Origin: an uncultured Syntrophorhabdus sp.
Lineage (GTDB): Bacteria > Desulfobacterota > Syntrophorhabdia > Syntrophorhabdales > Syntrophorhabdaceae
Reading direction: 5' to 3'
Length of the DNA: 64,000 nucleotides
Assembly: GCA_964466585.1 (NCBI GenBank)
Contig: CAYXSH010000004.1
Span: forward strand, 14,463-78,462
Shown: positions 37,898-62,099 of the stretch, piece after piece
Layout: every line of letters starts with the position of its first letter
Numbering within the stretch: the stretch's first letter is position 1
Program-made: the position numbers and the translations under genes
Notes under the pieces: model-generated
What the model was told of the DNA's origin: nothing
The model's database searches: none
Seen by the model: the letters and a program-made list of their open reading frames with translations, nothing else

Positions 37898-37918
37898 GCT
37901 GCGGCGAGGTTGCCCTGA

Positions 37919-39326: not shown

Positions 39327-39350
39327 AGACCGCCGCGGCACAGGCCCCAT

Positions 39351-39753: not shown

Positions 39754-39971
39754 ACCGTTGCGGGCAGGTGGAAAATATCCACGGGCCCGGTATATAGAGG
39801 CTGAACCGATGCTGCACCGGCAGCCCATTTAAGACCGTATCAGCACCCTGGAGACTCTGGTAGTTTTGATCGGGATGGCGACAACGGGAAAAACTTTGAA
39901 GTATCACTGTCATGCAGGCCAAAACAGCCCGGCAAACGGCGGTAGCCTGCCTTTTTAAGGGTGATGACGAA

Positions 39972-40703: not shown

Positions 40704-40704
40704 G

Positions 40705-41628: not shown

Positions 41629-41699
41629 TAAATGTTGGAAATGCGTTCTTTTAATGATAGATTAACCATAAAAACAAACACCATGATCGAAAGGACGTT

Positions 41700-44413: not shown

Positions 44414-45630
44414 TAATAACCGGAATGGGTTCCATATCGCCCTTCGGGCGGGGCGTGGATACCCTCGTGGATTCCCTTTTGAACATGAAAAGCGCCGTGG
44501 CCAACGTCCCGGCGCTGGCAGACCTGGGCGGGCTCAGGACCAGGGTGGCAGCCCTTGTCCCCGACATTGACCCGAAGGAGATACCCAGGAAGCACAGAAG
44601 GTCCATGTCGATGATGTCGGTATACGCCGTGCTCGCGTGCAGGGAAGCGCTGGGCCGAAGCGCTCCCGGGGAGGAACGCCTCTCCGGCGGAAGGATGGGG
44701 GTCATCATAGGTTCGACCGTGGGGAGCCCCATAGTAACGGAAGAGTTCTTTGCCGGCTACCTTGCCGGGCACAGCATTGAAAATATGAGGGCCACCACCT
44801 TCTTCCAGATCATGAACCACTCCTGCGCGTCAAACGCGGCCCAGATCCTGGGCATCAACGGCCGGATCCTGGCCCCTTCCTCGGCTTGTTCCACATCCTG
44901 CCAGGCGATCGGGTACGGCTACGAGATGATAGCATTCGGCAAGCAGGACATGATGCTCTGCGGGGGCGCGGACGAGTTCCATCCTTTGAGCCCGGCAACA
45001 TTCGACATCATGAACGCCGCCTCTGTCGTATACAACGACACCCCGGACCGCACACCCCGGCCGTTCGACCGCGACAGGGACGGGGTGGTCTGTTCCGAAG
45101 GCAGCGGCATACTGCTTTTGGAATCGCTGGATTCGGCAAAAGAACGGGGCGCTCCCATCCTTGCCGAGATAGCCGGTTTTGCCACCCGGTGCGACACGTC
45201 CAACATCGCCGATCCCAACAGCGATTCCATGGAGGCCTGCATGAAACAGGCGCTGGAGGATGCCGGCATGACCGCCGGGGACATCGGCCACGTGAACGCC
45301 CACGCCACGGGCACAATACAGGGCGATAACGCGGAGGCCGAGGCGATCGGAAGGGTCTTCGGGGACAGCGTACCGGTCAGCAGCCTGAAGGGGCACCTGG
45401 GCCACACAATGGCCGCATGCGGCGCCCTTGAAATGATCGCGTCCATCGCCATGATCCGGGGCGGATACGTTATCCCGACGCTGAACCTGGAGAACGTAGA
45501 CCCGTCCTGCGCGGGGATCAGGCATGTCCGGAAGGCCGAGAACCTGGACATCGGGGCCGTCATGAAAAACAATTTTGCCCTGGGCGGCGTAAACACATCT
45601 ATTGTCATAAGGAGGTACGAGCATGACTGA
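44395..45630 (+). CDS. Beta-ketoacyl-ACP synthase II-like
   Basis: SSACSTSCQAIG, NAHATGTIQGD and KGHLGHTMAACG (Cys-His-His triad). Confidence 0.9.
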   Translation: MQAARVVITGMGSISPFGRGVDTLVDSLLNMKSAVANVPALADLGGLRTRVAALVPDIDPKEIPRKHRRSMSMMSVYAVLACREALGRSAPGEERLSGGRMGVIIGSTVGSPIVTEEFFAGYLAGHSIENMRATTFFQIMNHSCASNAAQILGINGRILAPSSACSTSCQAIGYGYEMIAFGKQDMMLCGGADEFHPLSPATFDIMNAASVVYNDTPDRTPRPFDRDRDGVVCSEGSGILLLESLDSAKERGAPILAEIAGFATRCDTSNIADPNSDSMEACMKQALEDAGMTAGDIGHVNAHATGTIQGDNAEAEAIGRVFGDSVPVSSLKGHLGHTMAACGALEMIASIAMIRGGYVIPTLNLENVDPSCAGIRHVRKAENLDIGAVMKNNFALGGVNTSIVIRRYEHD

Positions 45631-45877
45631 CCAGGAAATTATCGAGCTCATCGATACCACGCTCGCCAACGAATTTGAACTCAACATCGATGATATGGTC
45701 CCCGGCGCCGTTCTAAAGGACGACCTCGGCCTTGACAGCCTTGACAGGGTCGACATGGTGATCGTGCTCGAAAAGGCCTTCAGCTTCAAGATGAGCGAGG
45801 AAGAAGCCATCCGGGCCATCCGCACGCTGGGCGATATCCACAATTTCGTTATAAACAAAAAACATGAAATGCAGTAA
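45623..45877 (+). CDS. Acyl carrier protein (type b)
   Basis: LGLDSLDRVDMVIVLE; 84 aa; overlaps the KS stop. Confidence 0.85.
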   Translation: MTDQEIIELIDTTLANEFELNIDDMVPGAVLKDDLGLDSLDRVDMVIVLEKAFSFKMSEEEAIRAIRTLGDIHNFVINKKHEMQ

Positions 45878-45883
45878 AACCTG

Positions 45884-46648
45884 ATGCCCTTACCCGTCAT
45901 TGTCCTGATGAACCTGGTAATGTACCCCGTCATTGTCCTGATGACGGTCCTGGGGATCGTCCTGTTCCCTCTTTGTTTCGCGGCGGGGAAACTGGCCACA
46001 CACTGGGACAACGGCAGGGTCATGCGTTTCCTCGTATGGGTCTACGGCAGGGCCTGGATGGTGGTCATGGCCCCCTTTGTGAGGTTCAAAAGGGACGGCC
46101 TTGAAAAGGGAAGCGTCGGTCTGCCCTGTATCATTGTTGTCAACCATTTCTCTTTTTTCGACACCTACTGCATGGCATTGCTCCCCGTCAGCGACGTCAC
46201 CTTCGCGGTTCGCTCATGGCCTTTCAAGGTGCTGTTCTGGTACAGGCCTTTCATGCGCCTCGCGGGTTACATCGACGTGGAGGCCATGGGATGGGAAGGG
46301 ACGCTGGGAGAATGCAACAGGCTCTTCTCCGGAAAAGGTGCCGTGCTTTTCTTCCCCGAAGGCCACCGCAGCGCAGACGGACAGGTCAAGCGCTTTTACA
46401 CTGGGCCCTTCAAACTGGCTGTCGAAACGGGCATCCCCGTACTGCCTCTCTGCATCACAGGCACGGACGCCCTGCTGCCCCCGGGGCGCTGGTGGATGAA
46501 GCCCGCCACCGTCCGCCTCAGCGCCCTCGACCCCGTATTCCCCGGCGACTTCGCCATGGACGGGGACACGGCGCATATCAGCATGCGCAAGCATGTAAGG
46601 GGCATGATAATAAAACATCTAGACGAAATGAGGGAGGTCCGGGCATAG
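45884..46648 (+). CDS. 1-acyl-sn-glycerol-3-phosphate (lysophospholipid) acyltransferase family protein
   Basis: HX4D motif NHFSFFD and FPEGHRS block, with an N-terminal hydrophobic anchor. Confidence 0.8.
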   Translation: MPLPVIVLMNLVMYPVIVLMTVLGIVLFPLCFAAGKLATHWDNGRVMRFLVWVYGRAWMVVMAPFVRFKRDGLEKGSVGLPCIIVVNHFSFFDTYCMALLPVSDVTFAVRSWPFKVLFWYRPFMRLAGYIDVEAMGWEGTLGECNRLFSGKGAVLFFPEGHRSADGQVKRFYTGPFKLAVETGIPVLPLCITGTDALLPPGRWWMKPATVRLSALDPVFPGDFAMDGDTAHISMRKHVRGMIIKHLDEMREVRA

Positions 46649-46673
46649 CGAAAAGCGCCGCGGCCCGGTATTC

Positions 46674-47117
46674 ATGGGCAATAAACTGACAAAAGAAGAC
46701 CTCGTGCTCCCCGTGCCGGTCGAGATACTTCTGCCCCACCGCCGGCCCATGTGCCTTGTCGACCGCCTTGTCGAGTTCAGCGACAACTCCGGTGTCGTGG
46801 AGGCTGCGGTCGAGCACGGCGGCCTCCTGGTCGGCGAGGACGGGGTGCTTGACAGGGTCACATTCATAGAGCTGATAGCGCAGTCCTACGCGGCAGTGAG
46901 GGGCTACTCCGACCTGCTTGGCGGGAAAGACATAAAAAAGGGCTTCCTCGTCGCCGCAAAACTGATAGAGATAAAAGGGGAGGCCGCGGCGGGGGACCTG
47001 CTCAGGATCAAGGTGGCGACCACGGCGGAGGTGGGCGATTTCAACATCGCTGACGGGACCGTAATGAAGGGCGGCGAGGTCCTCGCCGCGGGGAACATAA
47101 CGGTATGGATCTCGTAG
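46674..47117 (+). CDS. Hot-dog fold 3-hydroxyacyl-ACP dehydratase-like protein
   Basis: ILLPHRRPMCLVDRLVEF N-terminal pattern typical of FabZ/ApeP-like dehydratases. Confidence 0.7.
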   Translation: MGNKLTKEDLVLPVPVEILLPHRRPMCLVDRLVEFSDNSGVVEAAVEHGGLLVGEDGVLDRVTFIELIAQSYAAVRGYSDLLGGKDIKKGFLVAAKLIEIKGEAAAGDLLRIKVATTAEVGDFNIADGTVMKGGEVLAAGNITVWIS

Positions 47118-47131
47118 GAACAACAAATACG

Positions 47132-47289
47132 CACACGGGTGAACGGGTATACGAGTGGACGGGGAAAAGCAAAAAAAATCCTTTACCCGTAAGCCCGTAA
47201 GCCCGTAAGCCCGTTCACCCGTATGCCCGTATGCCCGTATGCCCGTAAGCCCGTTCACCCGTAAGCCCGTTCACCCGTAAGCCCGTACA
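47132..47289. repeat. 8-bp-period tandem array CCCGTNNN (13 units), preceded by 4 inverted units and an A-rich spacer
   Basis: 47186-47289 reads cccgtaag x3, cccgttca, cccgtatg x3, cccgtaag, cccgttca, cccgtaag, cccgttca, cccgtaag, cccgtaca. 47132-47163 is the reverse-complement type (cacacggg tgaacggg tatacgag tggacggg). Confidence 0.85.
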
Positions 47290-47304
47290 ATGGGAAAGGT
47301 ATAA

Positions 47305-47958
47305 ATGAAAAAGATCATCGTTATTTCGGTGCTGCTGTCCGCGCTGATATTTTCCTACACAATGTTCGCCCAGGAGCCGCCCGGCGAGGCAAGGCCCGGC
47401 AAAGGGCGCAAGGCCCTGGTATTTGAGCGGATATCGAAGACGGTCCTGGGCATCAGGACCATCTCCGGCTCCTTCCGGCAGGAAAGGCGCCTTTCCATGC
47501 TCAAGGAGCCTGTTGTCTCGACGGGCCGTTTCTACTGCGAAAAACCTGACAAGCTGCGCTGGGAGGTCACGAACCCCGATCCTTCGGGATTCCTGGTCAA
47601 CGGCGCCGCGGCGAAACAGTGGAAAGGCAATGAAGGCGCTTCCGACACCTTCGACGCCAGGGAGAACCCGGTTATCAGGCTCATAGTTGACCAGATCTTT
47701 GCCTGGACCACGGCAGACCTCAAGTGGATCGAGCAGCGCTACGATGTCTCCGTCCTCAGGGACAGTCCCATAGCTCTCAGGCTCGTGCCGCGCGACGAGA
47801 ATGAAAGGCGCTATGTAGACCAAATCCGCATCATCTTCGAGGCGGGAACGAACTATGTCCGGTCAGTGGACATCGCGGAAAAAAGCGGCGATTCCACAAG
47901 GATCACCTTTTCCGGCATGGTCATGAACAGTCAATTGCAAAAAGGCCTTTTCGACTGA
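47305..47958 (+). CDS. LolA-like outer-membrane lipoprotein carrier family protein
   Basis: Signal peptide, then ISGSFRQERRLSMLKEPVVSTGRFYCEKPDKLRWEV, a LolA-fold pattern as found in aryl-polyene-type clusters. Confidence 0.7.
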   Translation: MKKIIVISVLLSALIFSYTMFAQEPPGEARPGKGRKALVFERISKTVLGIRTISGSFRQERRLSMLKEPVVSTGRFYCEKPDKLRWEVTNPDPSGFLVNGAAAKQWKGNEGASDTFDARENPVIRLIVDQIFAWTTADLKWIEQRYDVSVLRDSPIALRLVPRDENERRYVDQIRIIFEAGTNYVRSVDIAEKSGDSTRITFSGMVMNSQLQKGLFD

Positions 47959-47960
47959 TC

Positions 47961-50339
47961 ATGAGGAATTTTTTCTCTGTTTTTTCCTTCATCTACGATC
48001 ACCTCGCACGGCGAAGGCCCTGGCTCTACCTGGCCGCCTTTGCCGTCATCATCATTGCAGCCTTCATCTTAAGGAACATCAGGATGAACGAGGACATAAG
48101 ACCGCTCCTTCCCGACGACCGCAGCGAGGCCGCGAAAGATTTCGCGCTGCTCCAGAAGGCACCCTTTTCAGACAAGGTCCTGGTCAGCCTGAAGGGGGGT
48201 CCCGGGACGGGTAAGAAAGAGCTCACCGACGCGGCGGACATGCTGAGCCGTGCCATGAAACCGCCGTATTTCACCAGGGCCGTGACCGGGCCGGCCATGG
48301 CATTCGATGAAAGGTTCCCGCGGTGGATAACGAACGCCCTTCCCAATACATTCACTGCAGGAGACATGGAAAAGGCCGAAAAAGCGCTTACGACCGGGGA
48401 GGTCCGCTCCCGCCTGCAGAATGTCTATAAACAGCTGACCTCGCCGGAGGGATGGTTCATGAAACCTCTTCTGCAGACAGATCCGCTCGATCTTCGAAGC
48501 GGTGTCCTGGAAAAGCTCCGCCACGTGAACGTAATTCCCGGGATAGCCCTTTACAACAACCACTTCATAAGCGCCGACGGCGCCAATGCGCTGGTCATCG
48601 CGAAGACCCCTGTCAGGATAACCGATTCAAAGGGTTCCGACGAGCTGGCGGCACATCTCAAGGACCTCATAAAAAAGGTGGTCCCGCCAAAGATCGAGGC
48701 ATCGTTCGTAAGCGGCCACGCCTACACCGCCGCCAACGCCGGGACGATCAAGAAAGACCTTTACATCATCCTCACCTGCGCGTCCGTGACGATCTTCCTC
48801 CTGATCATGATCTTCTTAAGGAGCTGGAAGGGCATACTTGTCTTTCTCGTCCCCTCCTGCGTGCTTTGCCTGGCAACGGCCGGGACACTCTTGATCTATG
48901 ACAGCGTATCGGCCGTGACAATGGCCTTCGGCGCGGTGCTCCTGGGTATATCCGATGATTACCCCATACTCGTGTACTTCGCCCTGTGCAGCAAGGAGCG
49001 TGATCCTGCCGCTGTGACGCGGGAGGTTGCCCACCCCGTGATGTTCGGGGGGCTCACCACCATCGCCACATTCTGCGTCATGCTTCTTTCCACTCTGCCG
49101 GGGCAGCGTCAGCTCGCCGTCTTCTCCATGATCGGCGTCGCCGTGTCCCTTGTTTTTTCACTGATAGTGCTTCCCCACCTCATCCATTCGCTGCCGGGCA
49201 GAAAACGCTACATCGGCACAGGCTCCTCACGCACGCTGAACCTGCCCCGGAAGACGGTGACCGTGTGCTGGCTCATGGTCGTGGCCCTTTGCCTGTGGCA
49301 GTCGGGCCGTCTTAATTTCAACGGTGACCTCAAGGCAATGAACTTCGTGCCCGATGAACTGCAAAGGACCGAACAGCATATGTCGGGAACGTGGGGGAAC
49401 TTCAGGGACGGGGCGGTCCTTTTCGCGGAGGGCAAAGACATGGAGGCATCCCTCGCGGTCAACGATTCACTCTTTGCCTACCTGTCGAGCAGGCTCCCTC
49501 CGGGGCAGATAATCAGCCTGTCCCCCGTATTGCCCTCGGCGGCATCCCAACGGGCGAACGCGGAGCGCTGGGAAAGGTTCTGGTCGGGGGGCAACGACAG
49601 GCTGGCGCGAAGGCTTCTTTCAGAAGAAGGGGGGAAGCTCGGTTTTTCCGCGAATGCCTTCACGCCGTTCTTCGACATGATCGAAAAAAGGCCCGGGCCT
49701 GTTACGCTCGCGGAGATGAACGGGGCCGGCCTCTCGGACCTTACGGGTTCGTTGATCGTGAAAGGCAATGAAGGCGTCAAAACGCTGACCATCGTCCCCG
49801 ATACGCAGGCGGTGGTCGATCTCTTCAACAACGACCCGAAGAGGCCGCAGGGTGTCCGGCTCGTGTCCCAGGGCCGTTTCAAGGACATCATCAGCAAGGC
49901 GCTCGTCGGCAACTTCATACGCTATATAATCTTCGCCCTGCTGGTCATTATCGTGTCGGTGGGCCTCCTTTTCCGCAACCTTCAGAAGGCGGTCCTCGCG
50001 CTTATACCCGTGGCAACGGGGCTCGTATTCATGCTCGGCGCCATGGGGGCCCTCGGTGTGGAATTCAACCTGTTCAACATCGTCGCCACCATACTGGTCA
50101 TAGGGCTCGGCGTCGACCTTGGGATATTCATGGTCTGCAACATCACCGAAGGCTACGAGCACACCGCCAACCTGGGCATCCTCCTCGGCGGCCTGACAAG
50201 TTTTGTGGGCATAGGCGCGCTGGCCCTTGCGCATCACCCCGCCTTAAGTTCGATAGGGATAACGGTCCTCCTGGGCCTGTGCGGCGTGATCCCCTCGGCC
50301 CTGCTGGTGGTCCCGGCGCTATACGGCAAAAAGGCGTGA
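47961..50339 (+). CDS. MMPL/RND-superfamily predicted exporter
   Basis: 792 aa. Two blocks of multiple hydrophobic helices separated by large soluble loops. Lies next to the LolA-like gene. Confidence 0.8.
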   Translation: MRNFFSVFSFIYDHLARRRPWLYLAAFAVIIIAAFILRNIRMNEDIRPLLPDDRSEAAKDFALLQKAPFSDKVLVSLKGGPGTGKKELTDAADMLSRAMKPPYFTRAVTGPAMAFDERFPRWITNALPNTFTAGDMEKAEKALTTGEVRSRLQNVYKQLTSPEGWFMKPLLQTDPLDLRSGVLEKLRHVNVIPGIALYNNHFISADGANALVIAKTPVRITDSKGSDELAAHLKDLIKKVVPPKIEASFVSGHAYTAANAGTIKKDLYIILTCASVTIFLLIMIFLRSWKGILVFLVPSCVLCLATAGTLLIYDSVSAVTMAFGAVLLGISDDYPILVYFALCSKERDPAAVTREVAHPVMFGGLTTIATFCVMLLSTLPGQRQLAVFSMIGVAVSLVFSLIVLPHLIHSLPGRKRYIGTGSSRTLNLPRKTVTVCWLMVVALCLWQSGRLNFNGDLKAMNFVPDELQRTEQHMSGTWGNFRDGAVLFAEGKDMEASLAVNDSLFAYLSSRLPPGQIISLSPVLPSAASQRANAERWERFWSGGNDRLARRLLSEEGGKLGFSANAFTPFFDMIEKRPGPVTLAEMNGAGLSDLTGSLIVKGNEGVKTLTIVPDTQAVVDLFNNDPKRPQGVRLVSQGRFKDIISKALVGNFIRYIIFALLVIIVSVGLLFRNLQKAVLALIPVATGLVFMLGAMGALGVEFNLFNIVATILVIGLGVDLGIFMVCNITEGYEHTANLGILLGGLTSFVGIGALALAHHPALSSIGITVLLGLCGVIPSALLVVPALYGKKA

Positions 50340-50352
50340 CCAGGGAACGGCA

Positions 50353-50787
50353 ATGAACAGGCTCAGGGAAGAGATAAAAAAATGCGCCGTCGGGCCCGTC
50401 GAGAAGGCGGAGCCGGCGAAGGCCTCCGGGCGTTACCTTTTCCCTGCCGATTTTATCGGTTTTTCCGGCCATTTCCCCGGCCACCCCATCCTGCCCGCCT
50501 TTATACAGGTGATGACGGCGCTGGCGGTCGCGGATGAATGGAAGGGCCGCCCGCACTGCCTGTCATCGATGGAGAGGGCAAAATTTCGCATGGAGATACA
50601 TCCGGACCAGGAGGTTTCGGTCCAGTTGAAACAGCCCGGGCCGGGGGACACCGGCGGCTTCGAGGTCAGGATCATAACAGCGGAAGGGCTTGCGACATCT
50701 TTATTTTCTAAAAACCGTCTGAAAGGGATCGAAAAAATATGCAAAGACCATATTTCAGCAGGAAGGCGACGGACCCTGAACCCTTAA
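50353..50787 (+). CDS. Hot-dog fold dehydratase-like protein (FabZ/ApeI-like)
   Basis: FSGHFPGHPILPAFIQVMTAL matches the GHFPxxPxxPG dehydratase motif. Confidence 0.6.
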   Translation: MNRLREEIKKCAVGPVEKAEPAKASGRYLFPADFIGFSGHFPGHPILPAFIQVMTALAVADEWKGRPHCLSSMERAKFRMEIHPDQEVSVQLKQPGPGDTGGFEVRIITAEGLATSLFSKNRLKGIEKICKDHISAGRRRTLNP

Positions 50788-51200
50788 GGGCAAAGGTTTC
50801 GAGGCGGGTGAGGTTCGAAGAGACGGACCCCCTGGGGATCGTCTGGCACGGACGCTACCCGGGCTATTTCGAGGACGCAAGGGTGGCACTCGGCGAAAGG
50901 TGCGGCATAGGGTACCTTGACTTCTATAATAACGGCGTATCCGCGCCCATCAAGAAGATGCACCTCGATTATTACCGCCCGCTGAGACTCATGGAGAACT
51001 TCACCATAGAGGCCATTTTGCACTGGTCCGACGCAATGAGGGTCAATTACGAGTTCATCATAAAGGACAGCGAGGACATTGTGGCGACCACGGGTTATAC
51101 CGTCCAGGTGCTCCTGAACAGGAACAATGACCTCCTGCTGGTCCCGCCGCCCTTTTTCAGGGAGTTTCGAGAAAAATGGAGATCAGGGGAACTGAAATAA
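50739..51200 (+). CDS. Acyl-CoA/acyl-ACP thioesterase (4HBT/YbgC family)
   Basis: VRFEETDPLGIVWHGRYPGYFEDARV, typical of 4HBT hot-dog thioesterases. The start is uncertain (49-nt overlap with the upstream ORF). Confidence 0.75.
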   Translation: MQRPYFSRKATDPEPLRAKVSRRVRFEETDPLGIVWHGRYPGYFEDARVALGERCGIGYLDFYNNGVSAPIKKMHLDYYRPLRLMENFTIEAILHWSDAMRVNYEFIIKDSEDIVATTGYTVQVLLNRNNDLLLVPPPFFREFREKWRSGELK

Positions 51201-53061: not shown

Positions 53062-54336
53062 GTGCTGAAAAACATGAAAATGACATTGATCTACCCCAGA
53101 TGGCCCAAGCTTCAAAGACAGACTGAATTCCACCTCCCTCCGCACGGTCCAGTGGTCTTTGCCGCGACCGTTCCGGAAGAGGTCGATATAACATTCGTTG
53201 ACGAGAATGTTGAAGACTACCCCCTAACCGACTCTCCTGACATACTGGCCCTGTCGGTGATGCTCACAAGCCAGCTCCCGAGGGCATACGAGATATCGGA
53301 ACAATACCGCTCGCGGGGTATACCCGTCGTGATGGGAGGCATTGCTGCCACGCTCCACACCGAAGAAGCGGCCGGCCATGCCGATGCCCTGTTCATCGGA
53401 GAGGCCGAAGGGCGTTTCCCGCAGGTCATAGAGGACCTGAAAAATGGCCGCCTCAAACCCGTCTACGACCATTTCGACGACCGGCCCGACACAGGCCTCA
53501 TCGGCACGGCACGGCGCGACCTTCTTAAGAGGGAGCTTTACAACTACCGCGGCGTACAGATGGTGGACCTCATCCACGCATCCCGCGGCTGCAAGTTCAA
53601 CTGTTTCCCGTGCTGCGTCGGCTACCTCGGCGGCAGGCAGTTCAGGCCGCGCCCCATTGACAGGGTGATGGAAGAGATGGCGTCGATACCGAACAACCGC
53701 CTTTTCGTCGTCGACAATTCCCTCGCGCAGGAACGCCAATGGCTGATCGACCTCTTCACCGCCATGGCCCCCCTCAAGAAAAAGTTTGTCTGCCATCCCA
53801 TACTCGACGATGACGAGGTCCTGTCGCTTGCCGCCGATGCCGGGTGCTGGTATGTCTACCAGGCGATATATGACACCTCCGATACGATCCGCAGAAGGGT
53901 TGAGAGGCTCAAGGACCACGGGATAGGCGTGGAAGGCACCATATTGCTCGGCACCGACGACCACGACGAGGACTACATAAAACGCCTTGTCGATTTCATC
54001 CAGGAGATCGGGGTAAACATGGCGGAGTTCACCATACTGACGCCTTTCCTGCATTCACCCATCAGGCAGCGCCTCGAGAGGGAGGGCAGGATAATCGACA
54101 ACAACTGGCTGCATTACACCGCTGACAGGGTGGTCTTCCGGCCGAAACGCATGACGCCCGAAAAGCTCCAGGAGCTCTACTATTACGCGTGGGACACCTT
54201 CTACGGTGATAACGGCCTCCAGATCAAGATGGGAGAGCTCTTCATGAACGTGATCCGCAAAGAGATGAAAGACGGCACATACCGCGGGTACAATCCGAAA
54301 GAAAAACGTGCTTTCAAAAAAATGAGCGCGAACTGA
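53062..54336 (+). CDS. B12-binding-domain radical SAM protein (1 of 3)
   Basis: CX3CX2C motif ASRGCKFNCFPCC after an N-terminal Rossmann-like B12-binding region. Alternative ATG start at 53074. Confidence 0.85.
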   Translation: MLKNMKMTLIYPRWPKLQRQTEFHLPPHGPVVFAATVPEEVDITFVDENVEDYPLTDSPDILALSVMLTSQLPRAYEISEQYRSRGIPVVMGGIAATLHTEEAAGHADALFIGEAEGRFPQVIEDLKNGRLKPVYDHFDDRPDTGLIGTARRDLLKRELYNYRGVQMVDLIHASRGCKFNCFPCCVGYLGGRQFRPRPIDRVMEEMASIPNNRLFVVDNSLAQERQWLIDLFTAMAPLKKKFVCHPILDDDEVLSLAADAGCWYVYQAIYDTSDTIRRRVERLKDHGIGVEGTILLGTDDHDEDYIKRLVDFIQEIGVNMAEFTILTPFLHSPIRQRLEREGRIIDNNWLHYTADRVVFRPKRMTPEKLQELYYYAWDTFYGDNGLQIKMGELFMNVIRKEMKDGTYRGYNPKEKRAFKKMSAN

Positions 54337-55688
54337 TGAGCAGGGTCCTTATCATCTCCCCCAATACGGTCTCCGACCCCTATCCGGTCTACCCCATAGG
54401 CATGGCCATCGTCAGCGCCGCGCTGGAGGCGGGCGGTCACGAGGTCCGCCAGTACGACCTTCTCGTGGAAGGCCAGTCCGAAGACCGTCTGAAGGAGGCC
54501 ATATCAGGCTTCGGCCCAAATTACGTGGGCGTGTCGCTGCGCAACATAGATACCGTCGATTCATGCGACCCCGAGAACAGCTGGTTCCTCTCATCCAACC
54601 TGGATCTCATAAGAACGATCAGGAAGGCGACGGCCGCGCCGGTTATCATCGGGGGGCCGGCCTTTTCCATCATGCCCGACGAGATACTAGGCTACCTGGG
54701 CGCGGACTATGGCGTGGTCGGCGAAGGAGAGCACACCGTATGCGGCCTCATCGAAGGACTTGATGGGAAAAGACCGATGCCGCGCATTACCGGAAGCGTT
54801 GTGCGGAACGGGAACACCCGGACGGCGGCCGTATACAGCCCCTGCTGGGAAAGCAAAATGGTGGATTTCTACAGGCAGGAAAGCGGCATGATGAATATAC
54901 TGACAAAGCGCGGCTGCCCGTACGGGTGCGCCTACTGCACCTATCCCGCCATCGAAGGCCACACCATACGTCACAGGCCGCCCGATGATGTCGCAGATGA
55001 AATGGAAAGGCTGAAGACCGACTACGGAGTGGACACCTTTTATTTCACCGACTCCGTCTTTAACGACGAGGAAGGCGGCTACCTGAAGGTCGCCGAAACC
55101 ATTGTGCGCAGGAAGATGAACATCAGGTGGACGGCGTTCTTCCGTCCCGCCAGGATGAGCGGCGAGGAATGGTCACTGCTCAAACGCTCGGGGCTATACG
55201 CCATAGAACTGGGCAGCGACGCGTCGAACGATGCCGCACTGCAGGGACTGAACAAGCAGTTCGGCTTTGGCGACATATACGATTTCAACGAGGCCGCCAT
55301 GAAGTACCGCATGCCGTGCGCCCATTACATCATTTTCGGCGGCCCCGATGAGACGGACGCGTCCCTCGACGAGGGGCTGCGCAACCTGGAACGCCTCAGG
55401 AACTGCATGGTCCTCGCCTTCTCCGGCATCAGGGTCCTTCCATCCACCCCGCTGCTTTCAAGGGCGGTCAGGGAGGGCATTGTCGCCGAGGGGGCGTCTC
55501 TCCTGGAACCGGTCTATTATTTCTCCCCGGGCATGGATGCCGGAAAGATGAACGACACCATCGTGAACTCGTTCCATGGGCGCATGAACAGGATCTTCCC
55601 GCCTTTTGAAGGGCTCTCGCGCATGAGAAAATTGCATGAGGTCGGCTACCGCGGCCTCATGTGGGACCGGCTGGTGCGCTTTGGCTGA
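54336..55688 (+). CDS. B12-binding-domain radical SAM protein (2 of 3)
   Basis: TKRGCPYGCAYCTYP motif; N-terminal region VLIISPNTVSDPYPVYPIGMAIV. Its start overlaps the previous stop (TGATG). Confidence 0.85.
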   Translation: MSRVLIISPNTVSDPYPVYPIGMAIVSAALEAGGHEVRQYDLLVEGQSEDRLKEAISGFGPNYVGVSLRNIDTVDSCDPENSWFLSSNLDLIRTIRKATAAPVIIGGPAFSIMPDEILGYLGADYGVVGEGEHTVCGLIEGLDGKRPMPRITGSVVRNGNTRTAAVYSPCWESKMVDFYRQESGMMNILTKRGCPYGCAYCTYPAIEGHTIRHRPPDDVADEMERLKTDYGVDTFYFTDSVFNDEEGGYLKVAETIVRRKMNIRWTAFFRPARMSGEEWSLLKRSGLYAIELGSDASNDAALQGLNKQFGFGDIYDFNEAAMKYRMPCAHYIIFGGPDETDASLDEGLRNLERLRNCMVLAFSGIRVLPSTPLLSRAVREGIVAEGASLLEPVYYFSPGMDAGKMNDTIVNSFHGRMNRIFPPFEGLSRMRKLHEVGYRGLMWDRLVRFG

Positions 55689-55706
55689 GAGCGCGCTAAA
55701 AAGGAC

Positions 55707-57176
55707 ATGGCGATGCTGAACGAAAAAAGGGTCCTCCTTGTCCATCCCCTGGGCTACAGCCCGGAGAACGCCGGGCATGACATATCGAGAAAGGCCAACA
55801 TCATGCCGCCGCTCGGGCTTGCAAGCCTCGCGGCCTACCTGGGCCGGGCCGGCATAGAGGCCGACATCGTCGACTATTACGCCAACCCCATGTCCGACCC
55901 CCTGGTCAGGGACCACGTGGCAAGGTACCGGCCGGCATTTATCGGCCTGAGCTGTACCACGTCGAGCTTCCTCGACGGGGTCCGCGTAGCCGGCCTGGCG
56001 AAGTCCATTGAACCCGGCATAAAGACCATCTTCGGCGGGCCCCATGTGTCGGCCCTGAAGACAAGGATACTGGAAGACTTCCCCCTGGTCGACCTGACCG
56101 TGGTCGGTGAAGGCGAAGAGACCCTGGAAGAGCTCATCGCGTGCGGCGCTGAGGCCGGGCAGCTGCACCGCGTGCCGGGCGTCGTCTACCGTGACGGAAA
56201 GGAAGGCGTCGTTTTTACGGGTTACCGGAAAAAAGGCGTCGACCTCGACAGCCTCCCCTTCCCCGCCTACGAGAAGCTCCCCGGGTACCCGCTTGCCTAC
56301 AGGCTTCCCATATTCAACTACCCCGGCACCCCCAATTCCAGCTGTATATCGAGCAGGGGCTGCCCTTATTCCTGCAGCTACTGCGACCGGTCCGTCTTCC
56401 GCAACAGCTTCAGGTACAACTCCGCCGGATATCTCTATGAACACCTCAAATACCTGAACGAGAGGTTCCGCATCCGCCATGTGAACTTCTACGACGACCA
56501 GTTCACCTTCAACCGCCAGAGGGTAGCGGATTTCACCCGCATGATGATCGACAGGCCCCTTAAGATGACATTCAACTGCGCCGTTCGCGCTGAACACATA
56601 GATCCTGAGCTGGCAGGCATGATGAGGCAGGCAGGGTGCTGGATGGTAAGCCTCGGCATAGAAACGGGCGATGAAGAGCTCCTCGCACGCCACAGGAAGA
56701 ACGCCGATCTTGGAATGCTTGCGGAAAAGATAAGGATGATCAAGAAGGCCGGCATCCGCGTGAAGGGGCTCATGATGATCGGGCTCCCCGGGGAGACGAG
56801 GGCAAGCATAGAAAAGAGCATGGAATATGTCTTTTCCCTGCCCGTCGATGACATAAACGTCTCCAAGTTCACGCCCTTCCCCGGTACGCCCCTCTACGAG
56901 AACGCGCACGAACTGGGCACCTTCGAGGAGGACTGGCCGAAAATGGACTGCATGAGCTTCCTTTTCATTCCCAGGGGCATGACGAAAAAACTGCTCGAAA
57001 AGCTCTTCACGAGGTTCTACCGCAGGCACATCATGCGGCCGAAAACGCTCATCGATTACGTCACCATGATCTGGCGCTCACCCGACAGCTGGAAAAGGTT
57101 CATATCCAACATAGGCCCCTTCCTGCGCTTCGCCCTGACCGACAGGAGAATAGCGGGGGATAAGAAAACAGTTTGA
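55707..57176 (+). CDS. B12-binding-domain radical SAM protein (3 of 3)
   Basis: SSRGCPYSCSYCDRS motif; N-terminal region VLLVHPLGYSPEN...PPLGLASLAAYL. Confidence 0.85.
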   Translation: MAMLNEKRVLLVHPLGYSPENAGHDISRKANIMPPLGLASLAAYLGRAGIEADIVDYYANPMSDPLVRDHVARYRPAFIGLSCTTSSFLDGVRVAGLAKSIEPGIKTIFGGPHVSALKTRILEDFPLVDLTVVGEGEETLEELIACGAEAGQLHRVPGVVYRDGKEGVVFTGYRKKGVDLDSLPFPAYEKLPGYPLAYRLPIFNYPGTPNSSCISSRGCPYSCSYCDRSVFRNSFRYNSAGYLYEHLKYLNERFRIRHVNFYDDQFTFNRQRVADFTRMMIDRPLKMTFNCAVRAEHIDPELAGMMRQAGCWMVSLGIETGDEELLARHRKNADLGMLAEKIRMIKKAGIRVKGLMMIGLPGETRASIEKSMEYVFSLPVDDINVSKFTPFPGTPLYENAHELGTFEEDWPKMDCMSFLFIPRGMTKKLLEKLFTRFYRRHIMRPKTLIDYVTMIWRSPDSWKRFISNIGPFLRFALTDRRIAGDKKTV

Positions 57177-57377: not shown

Positions 57378-58583
57378 ATGATCGATCCATCACCCATTGC
57401 CATGGAGCCTGAAGCAAGCCCCGTGAGGCCGCTTATCGTCATCCCCGTGTACAACCATTCGGGGACGCTGCGGGACGTCGTCACCGGAGCTCTCAACGCC
57501 TGCGATGACGTGCTGGTCATCGATGACGGCAGCAGCGACGGGAACGTCGGGCAGGCCCTCCATAACCTCCCCGTCCTTTTCATTCGCCATGAAAAGAATG
57601 AGGGGAAGGGCGCGGCCATCCTGACCGCGGCAAGGGAGGCCAAAAGACTCGGCATGACCCACATCATCACCATCGACGCCGACGGGCAGCATGACCCCGC
57701 GGACTTTTACCGGTTCGACCGCATGATCCGGGAAGAACCGCTTGCCATCGTGGTGGGGAAAAGGGCCTTCGACGAAAAGACCGTCCCTTTCTCGTCGCGC
57801 TTCGGCAGGGCCTTCTCCAACTTCTGGCTGAAGGTCCAGACGGGCCGCTCCCTCAAGGACACGCAGAGCGGCTTTCGCGCATATCCCGTCGCCGTGCTCG
57901 AATGGCTGAAACTCCATGACAGGCGCTTTTCATTCGAGGTGGAGGTGCTGGTGAAGGCGGCATGGGCGGGTATCCCCCTGAAAGAGGTCGACATATCCGT
58001 CCACTATCCGGAACAGGGGAAGCGAATCTCGCACTTTAACCCTTTCAGGGATAACCTCGCCCTCACCATCCTCAACACCCGTCTCACCATGCGGGCACTC
58101 CTGCCCATACCCCAGAGGAACTACGCGGAGGAAAAGGACGGATCGGAAAAGATAACTATCCTCCATCCCATAAATTCCATGAAGACACTTCTCAGGAGGA
58201 ACGTCTCGCCCAGGCAGCTCGCCCTGTCGGCCGGCCTCGGGGTCTTTCTCGGCAGCCTTCCCCTGATCGCGTGCCAGACCCTGACCATCCTGGTGACGGC
58301 AAGCTATTTCCGCCTGAGCAAGTTCGCCGCGCTGAGCACCAGCCAGCTGTGCATCCCCCCTGTCGTTCCGGCGCTGTGCATTGAACTTGGCTACTTTATC
58401 CGCCACGGCAGGTTCCTTACGGAGATCTCCCTGGAAACCATCGGTTACCAGGGGCTCGAAAGGATCTTTGAATGGATCATAGGCGCCTTTATCCTGGGTC
58501 CCGTCCTGGGGGCCCTGGTCGGTGCCGTCGTCTACGTGATGACCTTGCTCCTCGGAAAGGAAAAGATCAGAAAGAATGCATAG
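57378..58583 (+). CDS. Family-2 glycosyltransferase fused to a C-terminal membrane (DUF2062-like) domain
   Basis: VIPVYNH, VIDDGSSDG and DxD-type ITIDADGQHDP motifs. The C-terminal third is hydrophobic. Confidence 0.8.
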   Translation: MIDPSPIAMEPEASPVRPLIVIPVYNHSGTLRDVVTGALNACDDVLVIDDGSSDGNVGQALHNLPVLFIRHEKNEGKGAAILTAAREAKRLGMTHIITIDADGQHDPADFYRFDRMIREEPLAIVVGKRAFDEKTVPFSSRFGRAFSNFWLKVQTGRSLKDTQSGFRAYPVAVLEWLKLHDRRFSFEVEVLVKAAWAGIPLKEVDISVHYPEQGKRISHFNPFRDNLALTILNTRLTMRALLPIPQRNYAEEKDGSEKITILHPINSMKTLLRRNVSPRQLALSAGLGVFLGSLPLIACQTLTILVTASYFRLSKFAALSTSQLCIPPVVPALCIELGYFIRHGRFLTEISLETIGYQGLERIFEWIIGAFILGPVLGALVGAVVYVMTLLLGKEKIRKNA

Positions 58584-59502
58584 GGGAAAGGATAAAGCGG
58601 GAGACAAAACAGGATGGACCAGCCGCAGCGTCGGCTCGCGTCTCCAGCACAACACGTTCTATGCGCTCATCAGGCTTGGAGGGCGAAGGGCGGCGTACGC
58701 GGTCCTCAGTCTTGTCGCCCTCTACTACACCCTGTTCAGGCCTGACATCCGGAAAAAAACAGATCCTTACCTCAGGCGGCGGTTCAAGACGGGGAGGGGC
58801 CTGAAAAAGCTCCTCAACTGTTACCGTATCTACGAGAACCTCGGCAAGGCGCTCATCGACAGGGCCATAATAGGCATCAGGGGCCCCGGGCACATGCGCA
58901 TTGTGTGCAGCGACCATAACCTGCTGCTGGGCCTGGTCCGTGAAGGGCGCGGACTGGTGCTCCTGACCGCCCACGTGGGGTGCTGGCAGGCAGCCATGTC
59001 GGCGCTTAGCGTCCTCAACACACCGGTAAGCCTCTTGCTCCACCGCGAAGAAGGCGACGTCGATCTCCACTATTTCGAACATTCAGGCGGCCGGGCACCG
59101 TTTCGGGTCATCGACCCCTTGAGCTACCTGGGGGGAGTGCTGGAAATGATGGATGTCCTCAAAAAAGGCGAGGTGCTTTCAATAATGGGTGACAGGGTTT
59201 TCGGAGATGCCAGGAGCACGATCCGGACGGACTTCCTGGGACATCCCGTCCGGTTCCCCTCCAGCGCCTATAAGCTCGCTTCCGCAACGGGGGCACCCAT
59301 CGCGGTCCTGCTGTCGCACAAGAGCGGCCCAGACAGCTACGAACTGACCGTTGACGACGTTATAAGGATCCCCCACGAGACCGGGCGGCCGGAGAATGTT
59401 TTCCACCCCTATGCGGAACGCTTCGCCGGGGCTCTTGAATCCTACGTGCAGCGCTACCCGTACCAGTTCTTTAATTTTTACGACATGTGGGAAGAGGCCT
59501 GA
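58576..59502 (+). CDS. LpxL/HtrB-like (LABLAT) lipid acyltransferase family protein
   Basis: 308 aa with an N-terminal TM segment. LLTAHVGCWQ sits in the position of the HX4(D/E) motif. Overlaps the GT2 gene by 8 nt. Confidence 0.65.
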   Translation: MHRGKDKAGDKTGWTSRSVGSRLQHNTFYALIRLGGRRAAYAVLSLVALYYTLFRPDIRKKTDPYLRRRFKTGRGLKKLLNCYRIYENLGKALIDRAIIGIRGPGHMRIVCSDHNLLLGLVREGRGLVLLTAHVGCWQAAMSALSVLNTPVSLLLHREEGDVDLHYFEHSGGRAPFRVIDPLSYLGGVLEMMDVLKKGEVLSIMGDRVFGDARSTIRTDFLGHPVRFPSSAYKLASATGAPIAVLLSHKSGPDSYELTVDDVIRIPHETGRPENVFHPYAERFAGALESYVQRYPYQFFNFYDMWEEA

Positions 59503-59566
59503 CAACAGGGGCTTCTTTTTCACTGCAGCTTAAACGCAATTATCTTAATGGAGGAAGGTCTGCAAT

Positions 59567-59821
59567 ATGACGTTGAAGGAGAAACTCAAAAAGATCATTA
59601 TCGAAGAATTGAACCTGGAGGAGATCGGCCCCGAAGACATCGAGGATGACGCGCCCCTTTTCGGGGAAGGCCTGGGCCTGGACTCGCTGGATGCCGTCGA
59701 GATCGTGGTCCTTCTGGAGAGACATTTCGGGGTCGAGGTGAAAAGTCTCGAGGAAGGGAAGGCGGCTTTTCAGTCCATAAACGCACTGGCCGCATACGTG
59801 GAAGAAAGGATCGCCAGATGA
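59567..59821 (+). CDS. Acyl carrier protein (type c)
   Basis: LGLDSLDAVEIVVLLE; 84 aa; ATGA overlap with the next KS. Confidence 0.85.
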   Translation: MTLKEKLKKIIIEELNLEEIGPEDIEDDAPLFGEGLGLDSLDAVEIVVLLERHFGVEVKSLEEGKAAFQSINALAAYVEERIAR

Positions 59822-61026
59822 ACAACACCCGTGCCCCTGTGGCCATAACAGGCGTGGGGTGCATATGCGCCCCGGGAAACAACCTGGCTGAATGCATGGA
59901 GTCCCTCTTCAGGGGTGAAAGAAAGCCGGGCCCGCCCCTGAGGTTTACCACGGGCCATCCCGTCACCTATCCCGTCTTCAACGTACAGGATGATCTCGGA
60001 TCATTGGAAACGATCAAAGAACCTGACATAACACGCACGGGCAGGCTCGGCCTCAAGGCCGCCCTCGAGGCCGTCGAATGCGCCGGGCTCGACAGGCAGC
60101 AGCTCAGATCGAAACGGGTCGGGGTCTGCATGGGCACCACGCTGGGCTGCGTCATGAACAACGTGGACTTCTACCGGACATACCTGAAAGACCGGGACCC
60201 CGATCTGGATGCCATCTCCGTGTACCTCAGGAGCAACCCTTCATCCGTGATCGCGAGGGAGTTCGAACTTGCCGGCCCCTGCCAGACAGTGACCAACGCC
60301 TGTTCTTCGAGCACCGACGCGATAGGCATAGGCGCCATGTGGATCAGGTCGGGCCTGTGCGACATCGTCCTGGCCGGCGGCGCCGACGAATTGAGCCATG
60401 TTGCCTGCAACGGCTTCATATCGCTCATGATCGCCGACAGCGAACCATGCAAGCCCTTCGACAGGGACCGCAGGGGGCTCAACCTCGGCGAAGGGGCGGC
60501 AATACTGGTGCTTGAATCGGAATCTTCAAAGAAGGAAAGAGGGGCAAAGGGCCGCGCCTTCGTCCTCGGCTACGGGGCATCCTGCGACGCATATCACCTG
60601 ACCGCGCCCCACCCTGACGGAAAGGGGCTAAAGCGCGCCGTCGGGGAAGCGCTGGCCTCGAGCGGACTTGCCGCGCCGGACGTGGCGTTCATCAACGCAC
60701 ACGGCACGGGTACCCTGGACAACGACCGCGTGGAATCGCGCGTCCTTTTCGACATGCTGCCGGGTATACCCTTTCTCTCAACCAAAGGTTACACGGGGCA
60801 TACCCTTGGGGCCGCGGGCGCCATCGAGGCCGCCTTCACCGTTGCCTGCCTGGAAAAGGGGGAGATACCCGCAAGCATCGGGTTCACAACGCCTGACCCG
60901 GAACTGCTCGTAACCCCCGTAGTTAACAGGATGTCCATCCCCGGCAATGTGGCCATCTCTGAGTCCCTTGCCTTCGGCGGCCACAACGGGGTCCTGGTAT
61001 TCGGAAAGGAAGAGGTTCTGCCATGA
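59818..61026 (+). CDS. Beta-ketoacyl synthase (KS of the second KS/CLF-like pair)
   Basis: TNACSSSTDAIG, NAHGTGTLDND and KGYTGHTLGAAG. Confidence 0.9.
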   Translation: MNNTRAPVAITGVGCICAPGNNLAECMESLFRGERKPGPPLRFTTGHPVTYPVFNVQDDLGSLETIKEPDITRTGRLGLKAALEAVECAGLDRQQLRSKRVGVCMGTTLGCVMNNVDFYRTYLKDRDPDLDAISVYLRSNPSSVIAREFELAGPCQTVTNACSSSTDAIGIGAMWIRSGLCDIVLAGGADELSHVACNGFISLMIADSEPCKPFDRDRRGLNLGEGAAILVLESESSKKERGAKGRAFVLGYGASCDAYHLTAPHPDGKGLKRAVGEALASSGLAAPDVAFINAHGTGTLDNDRVESRVLFDMLPGIPFLSTKGYTGHTLGAAGAIEAAFTVACLEKGEIPASIGFTTPDPELLVTPVVNRMSIPGNVAISESLAFGGHNGVLVFGKEEVLP

Positions 61027-62099
61027 AGCTTGCCATCAATGGAATAGGCGTGGTGGGCGGTTTCGGCTGCGGAACGGGTGCCCTGGCCTCGGCGCTGCAG
61101 CGCGGCCGGTGCGAACCCGCGAAAACCACCATCAAGACGACCGGCGGGCCCGTTGAAATGTCCGCCTATCTCGCGGACACGTCGAGGCTTGAAGATTTCG
61201 TCAACAAAAGGGCCCTGAGGCGCGTCGACCATTTCTCGAAAATGGCCCTCCTGGGGTCGCATCTCGCGCTCGAAGAGGCGGGCATGCTGGAAAAAGACCG
61301 AAGCAGGACGGGCATCATCATCGCGACAGGATACGGCGCGGCCCTGACCACCTACGATTTTCTCGATTCCTTCATACTGCAGAGTGACAGCCTTTCCTCG
61401 CCGACCTACTTCTCCAATTCCGTCCACAACGCGGCCGCCGCAAGCATCTCCATGCTCCTTGACATAACAGGTCCGGGCCTGACGGTAAGCCAGTTCGAGA
61501 TGTCCGTCGCCTCGGCACTTCTTTCCGCGCGATGCTGGCTTGAAGAGGGGAGGGTCGATTCCGTACTGTTCGGCTCCATCGATGAATACTGCGATGTGCT
61601 GGGCTACTGCTGGCACCGTTTCTACGGGGGGAAAGCAACCGCCCCGCACGAAATGACGCCCCTGGACCTCGACATTCAGAGCGCAATACCGGGAGAAGGA
61701 GCGGCATTCTTCCTGCTGACTGCCGCGGAGAAGGAAACAGCCTCACCATATGGATATATCGAGGACATCTTCGTGGGCAGGTGCGCCGCGGGAAAGATCG
61801 CCCTGCCCCGGGACTCAAGGCTTTTCATCGGCGCCGACGGGAACACGATGTTCGGCAGGTACTACAGTGACCACCTTCCCGACAACGGGCGGACAACCTG
61901 CTACACCCCCCTGTACGGGAGCTTCCCCACGGGCCATGCGTTCGATATCGCCGTAGCCGCGATATCCAGAAAGGAAGGAAAGGTCTTCCCTTCACCGTGT
62001 GGGAGCGAGGACATGCAGGAGATACCGCTGGGCAGCGACAGCGTCAACAGCATCGTGATAGGCAGGGAGGGAGAGCTCGCCTCGGTGATCCTGCATTAA
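61023..62099 (+). CDS. KS-like protein without catalytic Cys (chain-length-factor-like)
   Basis: ATGA overlap with the KS gene. 358 aa, thiolase-fold-like, with no Cys-His-His triad. Confidence 0.7.
   Translation: MKLAINGIGVVGGFGCGTGALASALQRGRCEPAKTTIKTTGGPVEMSAYLADTSRLEDFVNKRALRRVDHFSKMALLGSHLALEEAGMLEKDRSRTGIIIATGYGAALTTYDFLDSFILQSDSLSSPTYFSNSVHNAAAASISMLLDITGPGLTVSQFEMSVASALLSARCWLEEGRVDSVLFGSIDEYCDVLGYCWHRFYGGKATAPHEMTPLDLDIQSAIPGEGAAFFLLTAAEKETASPYGYIEDIFVGRCAAGKIALPRDSRLFIGADGNTMFGRYYSDHLPDNGRTTCYTPLYGSFPTGHAFDIAVAAISRKEGKVFPSPCGSEDMQEIPLGSDSVNSIVIGREGELASVILH

Follow-up and report, generated by a model that had tools for sequence, protein, structure and literature searches.

The 64,000-nucleotide (nt) stretch of contig CAYXSH010000004.1 from an uncultured Syntrophorhabdus sp. 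(assembly GCA_964466585.1, positions 14,463 to 78,462), hereafter the window, carries three consecutive genes coding for B12-binding radical S-adenosylmethionine (SAM) proteins, named here rSAM1, rSAM2 and rSAM3. They are embedded between genes for a ketosynthase (KS) with its chain-length factor (CLF) and genes for a glycosyltransferase (GT) and an acyltransferase, a placement proposed in an earlier note on this DNA and confirmed by the matches of the flanking genes. The favored interpretation is that the three proteins belong to a widespread gene cluster of aryl polyene (APE) type and act in the cobalamin-dependent tailoring of a chain bound to acyl carrier protein (ACP). The three genes are the following.

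53074..54336, + strand: rSAM1, 420 amino acids (aa), B12-type Rossmann domain and radical SAM domain
54336..55688, + strand: rSAM2, 450 aa, member of family TIGR04072
55707..57176, + strand: rSAM3, 489 aa, B12-type radical SAM protein, optional third gene of the block

The open reading frames (ORFs) of 424, 450 and 489 aa with CX3CX2C motifs that the earlier note described are all present on the + strand. The 424-aa figure corresponds to the mechanical ORF of rSAM1, which opens with a GTG (53062-54336, + strand). Its true start is most likely the ATG at 53074 and not the GTG at 53062, because an AAAGG Shine-Dalgarno-like sequence lies directly 5' of this ATG and the database gene call is a 420-aa protein (P0014, 100% identical). 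Genes rSAM1 and rSAM2 share one base within the sequence TGATG at 54334-54338, with the stop codon at 54334-54336 and the start codon at 54336-54338, as had been noticed before. A gap of 18 nt separates rSAM2 from rSAM3. No convincing terminator or promoter splits the three genes, and the region has fewer terminator-like sites than shuffled sequences do. The one-base overlap and the short gap, together with the lack of an internal terminator, are consistent with transcription of the three genes as one predicted operon.

The three proteins share only 20-28% pairwise identity in partial alignments, and are therefore deep ancient paralogs and not recent duplicates, in agreement with the earlier proposal. 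Their cysteine motifs are CKFNCFPC in rSAM1 (first Cys at residue 173 in the 420-aa numbering), CPYGCAYC in rSAM2 (residue 194) and CPYSCSYC in rSAM3 (residue 219). The Cys triad is invariant among 20 orthologs of rSAM1, 31 of rSAM2 and 12 of rSAM3, drawn from several phyla. At E <= 1e-10 rSAM1 has at least 6340 homologs and rSAM3 at least 5381. Thousands of close homologs per protein and a gene order kept across phyla put the three-gene feature far beyond chance.

The two-domain organization of class-B radical SAM enzymes is borne out. All three proteins score above the cutoff of 32.1 bits for the B12-binding domain PF02310 (rSAM1 40.5, rSAM2 63.0 and rSAM3 85.7 bits), and the AlphaFold2 (AF2) models of rSAM1 and rSAM3 match class-B structures, with the expected cobalamin-type Rossmann domain present in both. 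For the Radical_SAM domain PF04055, rSAM2 and rSAM3 lie above the cutoff while rSAM1 lies below it (25.4 vs 29.5). Their sequences thus identify the three ORFs as predicted, anciently diverged cobalamin-domain (class-B-type) radical SAM enzymes. A profile search against characterized class-B families placed none of them inside a clade of unrelated function. Membership of the HpnR, HpnJ, BchE, TsrM, BzaD, PhpK, AprD4, MCR Gln methylase and KedN5 families was ruled out, all NCBIfam scores lying far below the cutoffs.

The cobalamin (Cbl) pocket was examined with the motif definitions of the Bridwell-Rabb/Drennan review, namely a downstream Gly/Ala-X-Ser-X-X, a Gly-Gly on beta4 and a Gly-Glu at alpha5 (PMC9204698). 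The key residues of the Ser, Gly-Gly and Gly-Glu motifs are invariant in each of the three ortholog groups. This conservation argues, short of proof, for cobalamin binding by all three proteins. No cobalamin riboswitch or other Rfam element was found within the 64-kb window.

The protein rSAM2 is the best anchored of the three. It matches TIGR04072 (rSAM_ladder_B12, 'lipid biosynthesis B12-binding/radical SAM protein') end to end, over profile positions 1-443 of 443, with 619.5 bits for a cutoff of 360, which makes it, by profile score, an unambiguous member. The family itself is defined by genome context only. The scores of rSAM1 (44.6 bits) and rSAM3 (95.7 bits) show that they are not members, while rSAM2 orthologs from anammox Brocadiaceae (587 bits), Maridesulfovibrio (686 bits) and Bacteroidales (403 bits) all pass the cutoff. 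No literature was found on TIGR04072, or on cobalamin radical SAM enzymes in flexirubin or aryl polyene pathways. The characterized families nearest to rSAM2 are BzaD (185 bits, cutoff 450) and TsrM (TIGR04428, 165 bits, cutoff 500), both annotated as B12-dependent methylases; the HpnR score is 62 bits for a cutoff of 650.

The closest solved structure to rSAM2 by sequence is the Trp C2-methyltransferase TsrM (6wte; E = 1e-32), with residues 3-162 of the Cbl domain aligned. The two proteins have in common the Gly-X-Ser/Thr-X-Arg motif with its Arg under the cobalt, and the GG and GE motifs, which are G106-G107 and G129-E130 in rSAM2. The signature G65-x-S67-x-R69-N70 is invariant in 31/31 rSAM2 orthologs and reads G65-V-S67-L-R69 in the window protein. 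They differ at the position of TsrM Glu273, which is V/I/L in 31/31 orthologs (D239-S240-V241 here). This Glu equivalent being missing, SAM could bind the cluster in rSAM2 and 5'-deoxyadenosyl radical chemistry would be possible. The alignment therefore suggests a cobalamin pocket like that of TsrM and, on the cluster, a site left open for SAM. A non-radical mechanism in the manner of TsrM was rejected for rSAM2, as all orthologs have V/I/L in place of the Glu that ligates the iron and the TIGR04428 score is below its cutoff.

The AF2 model of rSAM1 (predicted local distance difference test, pLDDT, 79; predicted template modeling score, pTM, 0.80) has a five-stranded beta/alpha Rossmann domain at the amino terminus followed by a radical SAM barrel. 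No NCBIfam family was found above its cutoff for this protein, the best being TIGR04013 with 53 bits. Residues C173/C177/C180, S61/M63, G88-G89 and G109-E110 are invariant among 20 orthologs from at least six phyla. The downstream Cbl motif reads A-L-S61-V-M63 in the window protein and A/F-x-S61-x-M63 across orthologs, and a fourth Cys adjacent to the triad is found in 19/20 of them. Of the three proteins, rSAM1 is conserved best, with 60-65% identity across phyla vs 37-43% for rSAM2. The possibility, raised by its sub-cutoff Radical_SAM score, that it is a degenerate pseudo-enzyme was discarded in view of its invariant Cys triad and cofactor motifs, highest conservation and radical SAM barrel fold.

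The protein rSAM3 scores 85.7 bits for the B12-binding and 81.5 bits for the Radical_SAM domains of Pfam. Its AF2 model (pLDDT 72, pTM 0.68) again shows a five-stranded beta/alpha Rossmann domain, with a radical SAM barrel after it. The Cbl motifs read G80-L-S82-C-T84, G110-G111 and G134-E135, and their key residues (G80-x-S82-x-T84 and the GG and GE pairs) are invariant in the 12 orthologs. The best NCBIfam scores are those of BchE (177, cutoff 481) and HpnJ (173, cutoff 578), with PhpK (147, cutoff 600) and AprD4 (92.4, cutoff 500) further down. Sequence matches in the Protein Data Bank (PDB) are AprD4 (4e-23) and TokK (1e-13), and the structures of TokK and CysS that match rSAM3 carry pantetheinylated substrates according to their descriptions, a precedent for substrates tethered through pantetheine. 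The affinities of rSAM3 are divided: TokK and CysS are iterative methylases of pantetheinylated substrates, whereas BchE and HpnJ form rings.

The best 120 homologs each of rSAM1 and rSAM3 are 66-100% identical to the query. The rSAM1 (P0014-P0133) and rSAM3 (P0005, P0134-P0252) groups obtained in this way are without a curated NCBIfam model and carry the source names 'YgiQ family' and 'anaerobic Mg-protoporphyrin IX monomethyl ester cyclase', which are probably mis-annotations.

The genes from ~34.0 to 62.1 kb are predicted to form one aryl-polyene-like cluster combining type II polyketide synthase (PKS) and fatty acid synthase (FAS) functions, of the antiSMASH 'ladderane' type. Apart from the three radical SAM genes it is composed as follows.

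34058..39732, + strand: probable left arm of the cluster, with a duplicated orf145 and BtrH_N/DUF4872 module, an ABC transporter and two ACPs
39912..51200, + strand: upstream part of the APE-like cluster, assigned by domain matches and synteny
51176-52330, + strand: KS_c, catalytic Cys and His residues kept
52327-53040, + strand: CLF_c, truncated (237 aa), Cys-less, CLF-like partner of KS_c
57378-58583, + strand: GT2, downstream of rSAM3
58576-59502, + strand: LPLAT acyltransferase, downstream of rSAM3
59567-59821, + strand: ACP
59818-61026, + strand: KS_d
61023-62099, + strand: CLF_d, without the catalytic Cys, as in chain-length factors

The segment 39912..51200 encodes, in this order, a FabG/FlxB-like short-chain dehydrogenase/reductase (SDR), a polysaccharide deacetylase, KS_a, a CrtI/CrtD-family oxidoreductase, KS_b, an ACP (45623-45877), an LPLAT, an ApeP-like dehydratase (DH), LolA2, an MMPL/RND exporter, an ApeI-like DH and a 4HBT thioesterase (TE). 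The genes at 57378..62099 are collinear with those of related loci. In total the cluster has four KS, two CLF-like proteins, at least four ACPs, the SDR, the ApeI- and ApeP-like DHs, the TE, two LPLATs, GT2, LolA2 and the MMPL exporter. The two DHs score below the Pfam cutoffs (PF22818 22.5, cutoff 28.5; PF22817 21.3, cutoff 27), and the Geoalkalibacter proteins at the matching cluster positions are listed under PF22818 and PF22817. The mechanical ORF of the CrtI/CrtD-family gene (42860-44413) overlaps the end of KS_a (42920) by ~60 nt and its true start is probably later than 42860. A second, distant CrtI-like gene (27-28% identity) is found 3' of CLF_d in the most closely related loci L001-L004, L006, L029 and L030 and is not within the window.

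In the left arm, the orf145-like copies lie at 34058-34435 and 37919-38296 (DNA 78% identical over 300 nt) and the BtrH_N/DUF4872 copies at 34443-35465 and 38313-39326. Two small ACP genes at ~37646-37876 and 39502-39732 have flanking DNA that is 92% identical over 300 nt, and the ABC transporter (35411-37591) is located between the copies of the duplicated module. The BtrH-like fold suggests acyl transfer from ACP to an amine. In Geoalkalibacter the orf145, BtrH and ABC genes sit downstream of the cluster. Directly upstream of the left arm, the gene at 30660-33908 codes for a hybrid histidine kinase that has a receiver domain and several PAS domains, a possible cluster regulator.

Clusters of this kind were described by Rattray et al. 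in 2009, who reported FASII-like clusters with radical SAM and phytoene-desaturase-like genes in Kuenenia (PMC2649909). The Kuenenia operon kuste3352-3335 includes the radical SAM proteins Kuste3343/3342 and the deacetylase Kuste3351, shows striking synteny with Desulfotalea (DP1855/DP1853) and has similar counterparts in Geobacter and Pelobacter (PMC2649909). Clusters flagged as 'ladderane' by antiSMASH occur in Desulfobacterota, Verrucomicrobiota, Myxococcota and other phyla, where they are reported without an assigned function (PMC9902471). The window cluster is syntenic with Kuenenia kuste3352-3335, Desulfotalea DP1853/DP1855 and the clusters of the Geobacter group, sharing with the first two multiple FabF-like KS, ACPs, radical SAM proteins, a phytoene-desaturase-like enzyme, a polysaccharide deacetylase and a GT. 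When compared to their published descriptions, which report two such radical SAM proteins, the window differs by having three and a second KS/CLF pair. It also differs from Kuenenia in its host, a Desulfobacterota metagenome-assembled genome (MAG) and not an anammox bacterium. The current candidate for ladderane synthesis is a different, anammox-specific Cluster I (KustE3603-3608), from which the window is set apart by description as it resembles the shared kuste3352-3335 type instead; PMC12758564 contains nothing on ladderane genes. The window locus is a further member of a cluster family recognized since 2009 and not a new kind. The novelty relative to characterized pathways implied by the earlier note is thus not upheld, the cluster having been published in that year (PMC2649909), covered by the curated TIGR04072 and flagged by antiSMASH (PMC9902471).

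The likeness to APE and flexirubin clusters extends to the KS/CLF pairs, ACPs, FlxB-like ketoreductase (KR), 4HBT TE, LPLAT, GT2, LolA2 and MMPL exporter, and may include the DHs with their sub-cutoff similarity to ApeI and ApeP. The Geoalkalibacter relative has in addition an aromatic ammonia-lyase and a DUF3261 protein. In contrast, no enzyme of aryl-starter activation (an ApeH-type AMP-ligase or an aromatic ammonia-lyase) and no DUF3261 protein were found among the window ORFs checked, and the operon has no ApeB-type methyltransferase, while it has as extras the CrtI-like oxidoreductase, the deacetylase, the BtrH_N/DUF4872 proteins and the ABC transporter. A tblastn search of the window with the Geoalkalibacter Lyase_aromatic and DUF3261 proteins gave no match, and the other large ORFs likewise yielded none. 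Characterized APE clusters are not known to contain radical SAM enzymes.

The distribution of the three genes was followed in a genome scan seeded with rSAM2, in which 30 loci were analyzed for synteny, and in an independent metagenome scan seeded with rSAM1, which yielded at least 589 stretches and whose module counts come from the best 80. The full collinear cluster with all three radical SAM genes is present in eight 'Deltaproteobacteria'/Syntrophus MAGs among the rSAM2-seeded loci; genomes with the three genes comprise Syntrophorhabdaceae-like MAGs, Syntrophus, Geoalkalibacter, Sumerlaeota and Nitrospiraceae. Gene rSAM2 stands alone in 8 Maridesulfovibrio-type and 3 Bacteroidales loci, and also in Victivallales, all found in the same scan. 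The arrangement KS_c-(CLF_c)-rSAM1-rSAM2 without rSAM3 is found in Kiritimatiellales, Verrucomicrobiota and an anammox Brocadiaceae MAG, whose contig has the order ApeI-like-TE-KS_c-rSAM1-rSAM2. Cultured Geoalkalibacter halelectricus (CP092109.1) carries rSAM1-2-3-GT2-LPLAT-ACP-KS-CLF-PagL-orf145-BtrH-ABC. In one Geoalkalibacter genome the 5' genes code for the aromatic ammonia-lyase, ApeP, LolA, MMPL, DUF3261, ApeI, TE and KS/CLF.

In the metagenome loci, rSAM2 follows rSAM1 in 57/60 cases, a KS_c/CLF_c pair lies directly upstream of rSAM1 in 46/50, and rSAM3 is present in 21 of the 36 informative loci. In L069 and L090 rSAM1 is followed by rSAM3 without rSAM2. These two loci of the rSAM1-seeded scan rule out a strict nesting, to which the rSAM2-seeded loci had pointed, in which rSAM3 would occur only with rSAM1, and rSAM1 only with rSAM2. 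L095 is also listed with rSAM1 then rSAM3 and no rSAM2. Further variants are L038-L040 and L058, where a TE gene precedes rSAM1 without KS_c/CLF_c, and L026, where KS_c accompanies rSAM2 without rSAM1. The three genes are separable modules, with rSAM2 as the core, rSAM1 associated with a KS/CLF pair and rSAM3 optional, and therefore do not form an obligatory three-step unit. The 'three successive radical steps' of the earlier note are not borne out by the comparison of genomes, in which rSAM2 alone, rSAM1 with rSAM2, rSAM1 with rSAM3 or all three occur.

The order KS/CLF-rSAM1-rSAM2-(rSAM3)-GT-LPLAT-ACP-KS-CLF is kept in more than 100 loci from many phyla. This pattern argues strongly against a chance clustering of the three genes with lipid genes, in which they would serve, for example, in cofactor or peptide maturation. 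A sub-threshold similarity of rSAM3 to ApyD, an enzyme of RiPPs (peptides of ribosomal origin that are modified after translation), speaks for it; against it stand also the overlapping or nearly abutting radical SAM genes, with no terminators between them, and the fact that no precursor-peptide or cofactor genes were seen near them. Such a coincidence is close to excluded, which applies to no other rival explanation.

The cluster organization leads to the following model, to which a probability of about 0.6 is given. The KS/CLF pairs, the KR and the DHs would build an acyl or polyene chain on ACP, and the three radical SAM enzymes would tailor the tethered chain. For the core enzyme rSAM2, C-methylation with methylcobalamin is the most plausible activity, given the Arg under the cobalt and the methylase annotation of TsrM and BzaD, its nearest characterized relatives. 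rSAM1 would work in concert with its companion, the second KS/CLF pair, and an additional, optional step would come from rSAM3. Linking of the product to a (glyco)lipid anchor may follow through the LPLAT, GT, deacetylase and BtrH-like enzymes, and the analogy with aryl-polyene clusters suggests LolA2 and the MMPL exporter as the route of the product to the outer membrane. A ladderane is not expected. The earlier proposal of action on an ACP- or lipid-bound acyl chain thus stands as far as the context is concerned, a lipid-type cluster with ACP, KS and CLF genes, while the chemistry is suggested by analogy.

Several observations weigh against this model. None of the three ortholog groups has a characterized member (PMC13459092; PMC13598231), so that both substrate and reaction type are inferred, and as of 2026 no such radical SAM enzyme had been isolated. 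The AF2 models of rSAM1 and rSAM3 reach only moderate confidence, which is lowest at the Fe-S loops. The window ORFs that were checked include no aryl-starter enzyme. BchE and HpnJ, the curated families nearest to rSAM3, are non-methylating ring-forming enzymes. The Radical_SAM score of rSAM1 falls below the cutoff and its Cys motif has the form CX3CX2CC, with a Pro replacing the aromatic residue before the third Cys. Finally, AprD4 is the top Foldseek match of both rSAM1 (TMq 0.74) and rSAM3, ahead of TsrM, MgmA, OxsB, TokK and CysS. AprD4 is a dehydratase that is not known to use cobalamin, and a B12-type fold does not by itself prove cobalamin use.

The last three points, AprD4 being the top match by sequence too (a weak one for rSAM1), are at the base of a different explanation, in which rSAM1 and possibly rSAM3 would be cobalamin-independent AprD4-like enzymes with a vestigial B12-type domain, catalyzing radical dehydration, desaturation or redox chemistry on a hydroxy-acyl or sugar intermediate. 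The GT, the deacetylase and the hydroxyacyl-handling enzymes of the cluster would be compatible with such a role. However, the radical SAM 1,2-diol dehydratase AprD4 (6fd2) is a distant relative: the scores for NF033070 are 30.6 (rSAM1) and 92.4 (rSAM3) vs a cutoff of 500, and AprD4 and the iterative Cbl-dependent methylases TokK and CysS are only 15-20% identical to the window proteins and unrelated in substrates and pathways. The x-S-x-M, GG and GE motifs of rSAM1, invariant across phyla, are hard to explain for a vestigial pocket, and its CX3CX2C motif differs from the aligned CPYPCRFYC of AprD4, which is CX3CX3C. A cobalamin-independent role is thus unlikely, and ranks second among the rivals.

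The rival of greatest weight, also improbable, is that the enzymes, rSAM3 in particular, catalyze ring formation or C-C coupling and not methylation, acting on a polyunsaturated ACP-bound chain made with help from the CrtI-like desaturase and giving a cyclic or differently rearranged lipid; in the extreme case they would be ladderane-type cyclobutane synthases. The top curated matches of rSAM3 and the presence of the CrtI/CrtD-family oxidoreductase in the cluster fit this idea. Known non-methylating Cbl-dependent radical SAM enzymes all carry out ring formation or rearrangement (PMC13598231), and orthologs of rSAM1 and rSAM2 are found in the anammox Brocadiaceae MAG (L024) and in the Kuenenia kuste3343/3342 operon (PMC2649909). 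On the other hand, the scores for BchE and HpnJ all fall far short of the cutoffs, the genes are common in phyla without reported ladderanes (PMC9902471), Desulfotalea has homologs and acyclic lipids only, with no ladderanes found (PMC2649909), and the ladderane candidate is the separate KustE3603-3608 cluster.

A more speculative extension starts from the module of rSAM1 with KS_c/CLF_c, which keeps 60-65% identity between Desulfobacterota and anammox Brocadiaceae. This module, with rSAM2 and rSAM3, might carry out radical C-C bond formation coupled to chain elongation, for example a stepwise ring closure or branching while the polyketide grows. This is a doubtful proposal, less probable than either of the two preceding rivals. 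If it were true, elongation-coupled C-C formation would be without characterized precedent in fatty acid or PKS biology, and tractable non-anammox bacteria would provide the missing experimental model for early ladderane-type lipid biosynthesis. Anammox bacteria are genetically intractable and their radical SAM proteins resist heterologous expression (PMC10139942).

Elsewhere in the window, a 2371-aa ORF (20964-28079, - strand) adjoins an ShlB/FhaC-type POTRA transporter gene (28165-29868); the pair looks like a two-partner secretion system, and the GC content of the segment 20964-29868 is raised to 0.60-0.63. A low-GC islet at ~14000-22000 (0.45-0.50 vs ~0.57 elsewhere) is probably a mobile or horizontally acquired segment. 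It includes genes for an MqsA/HTH-SocA-Panacea antitoxin-like protein (14146-15144) and for an IS200-type Y1 transposase domain fused to a DnaA_C-like helix-turn-helix (18527-19549). ORFs of 227-474 aa at 7197-8621, 9311-9994, 10017-10742 and 62323-63099 (all - strand) gave no Pfam match at E <= 1e-5, the last having only a weak NCBIfam match to the hypothetical family PRK06202.

The window leaves the existing knowledge of specialists on this cluster family unchanged. What is added here is the modular picture of rSAM2 as core, rSAM1 with its KS/CLF pair and rSAM3 as an option, and the two observations on the rSAM2 active site. The variant architectures of L069, L090, L095, L038-L040, L058 and L026 could act as natural 'deletion' experiments for each enzyme. 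The cluster family is very abundant in anaerobic sediments and reactors, two of its radical SAM proteins are common to anammox bacteria, and the chemistry is testable in cultured carriers such as Geoalkalibacter halelectricus and Maridesulfovibrio. Once solved, it would establish a new class of tailoring reactions on lipids or polyketides, and could help with the ladderane problem and with interpreting the lipid biomarkers of anaerobes.

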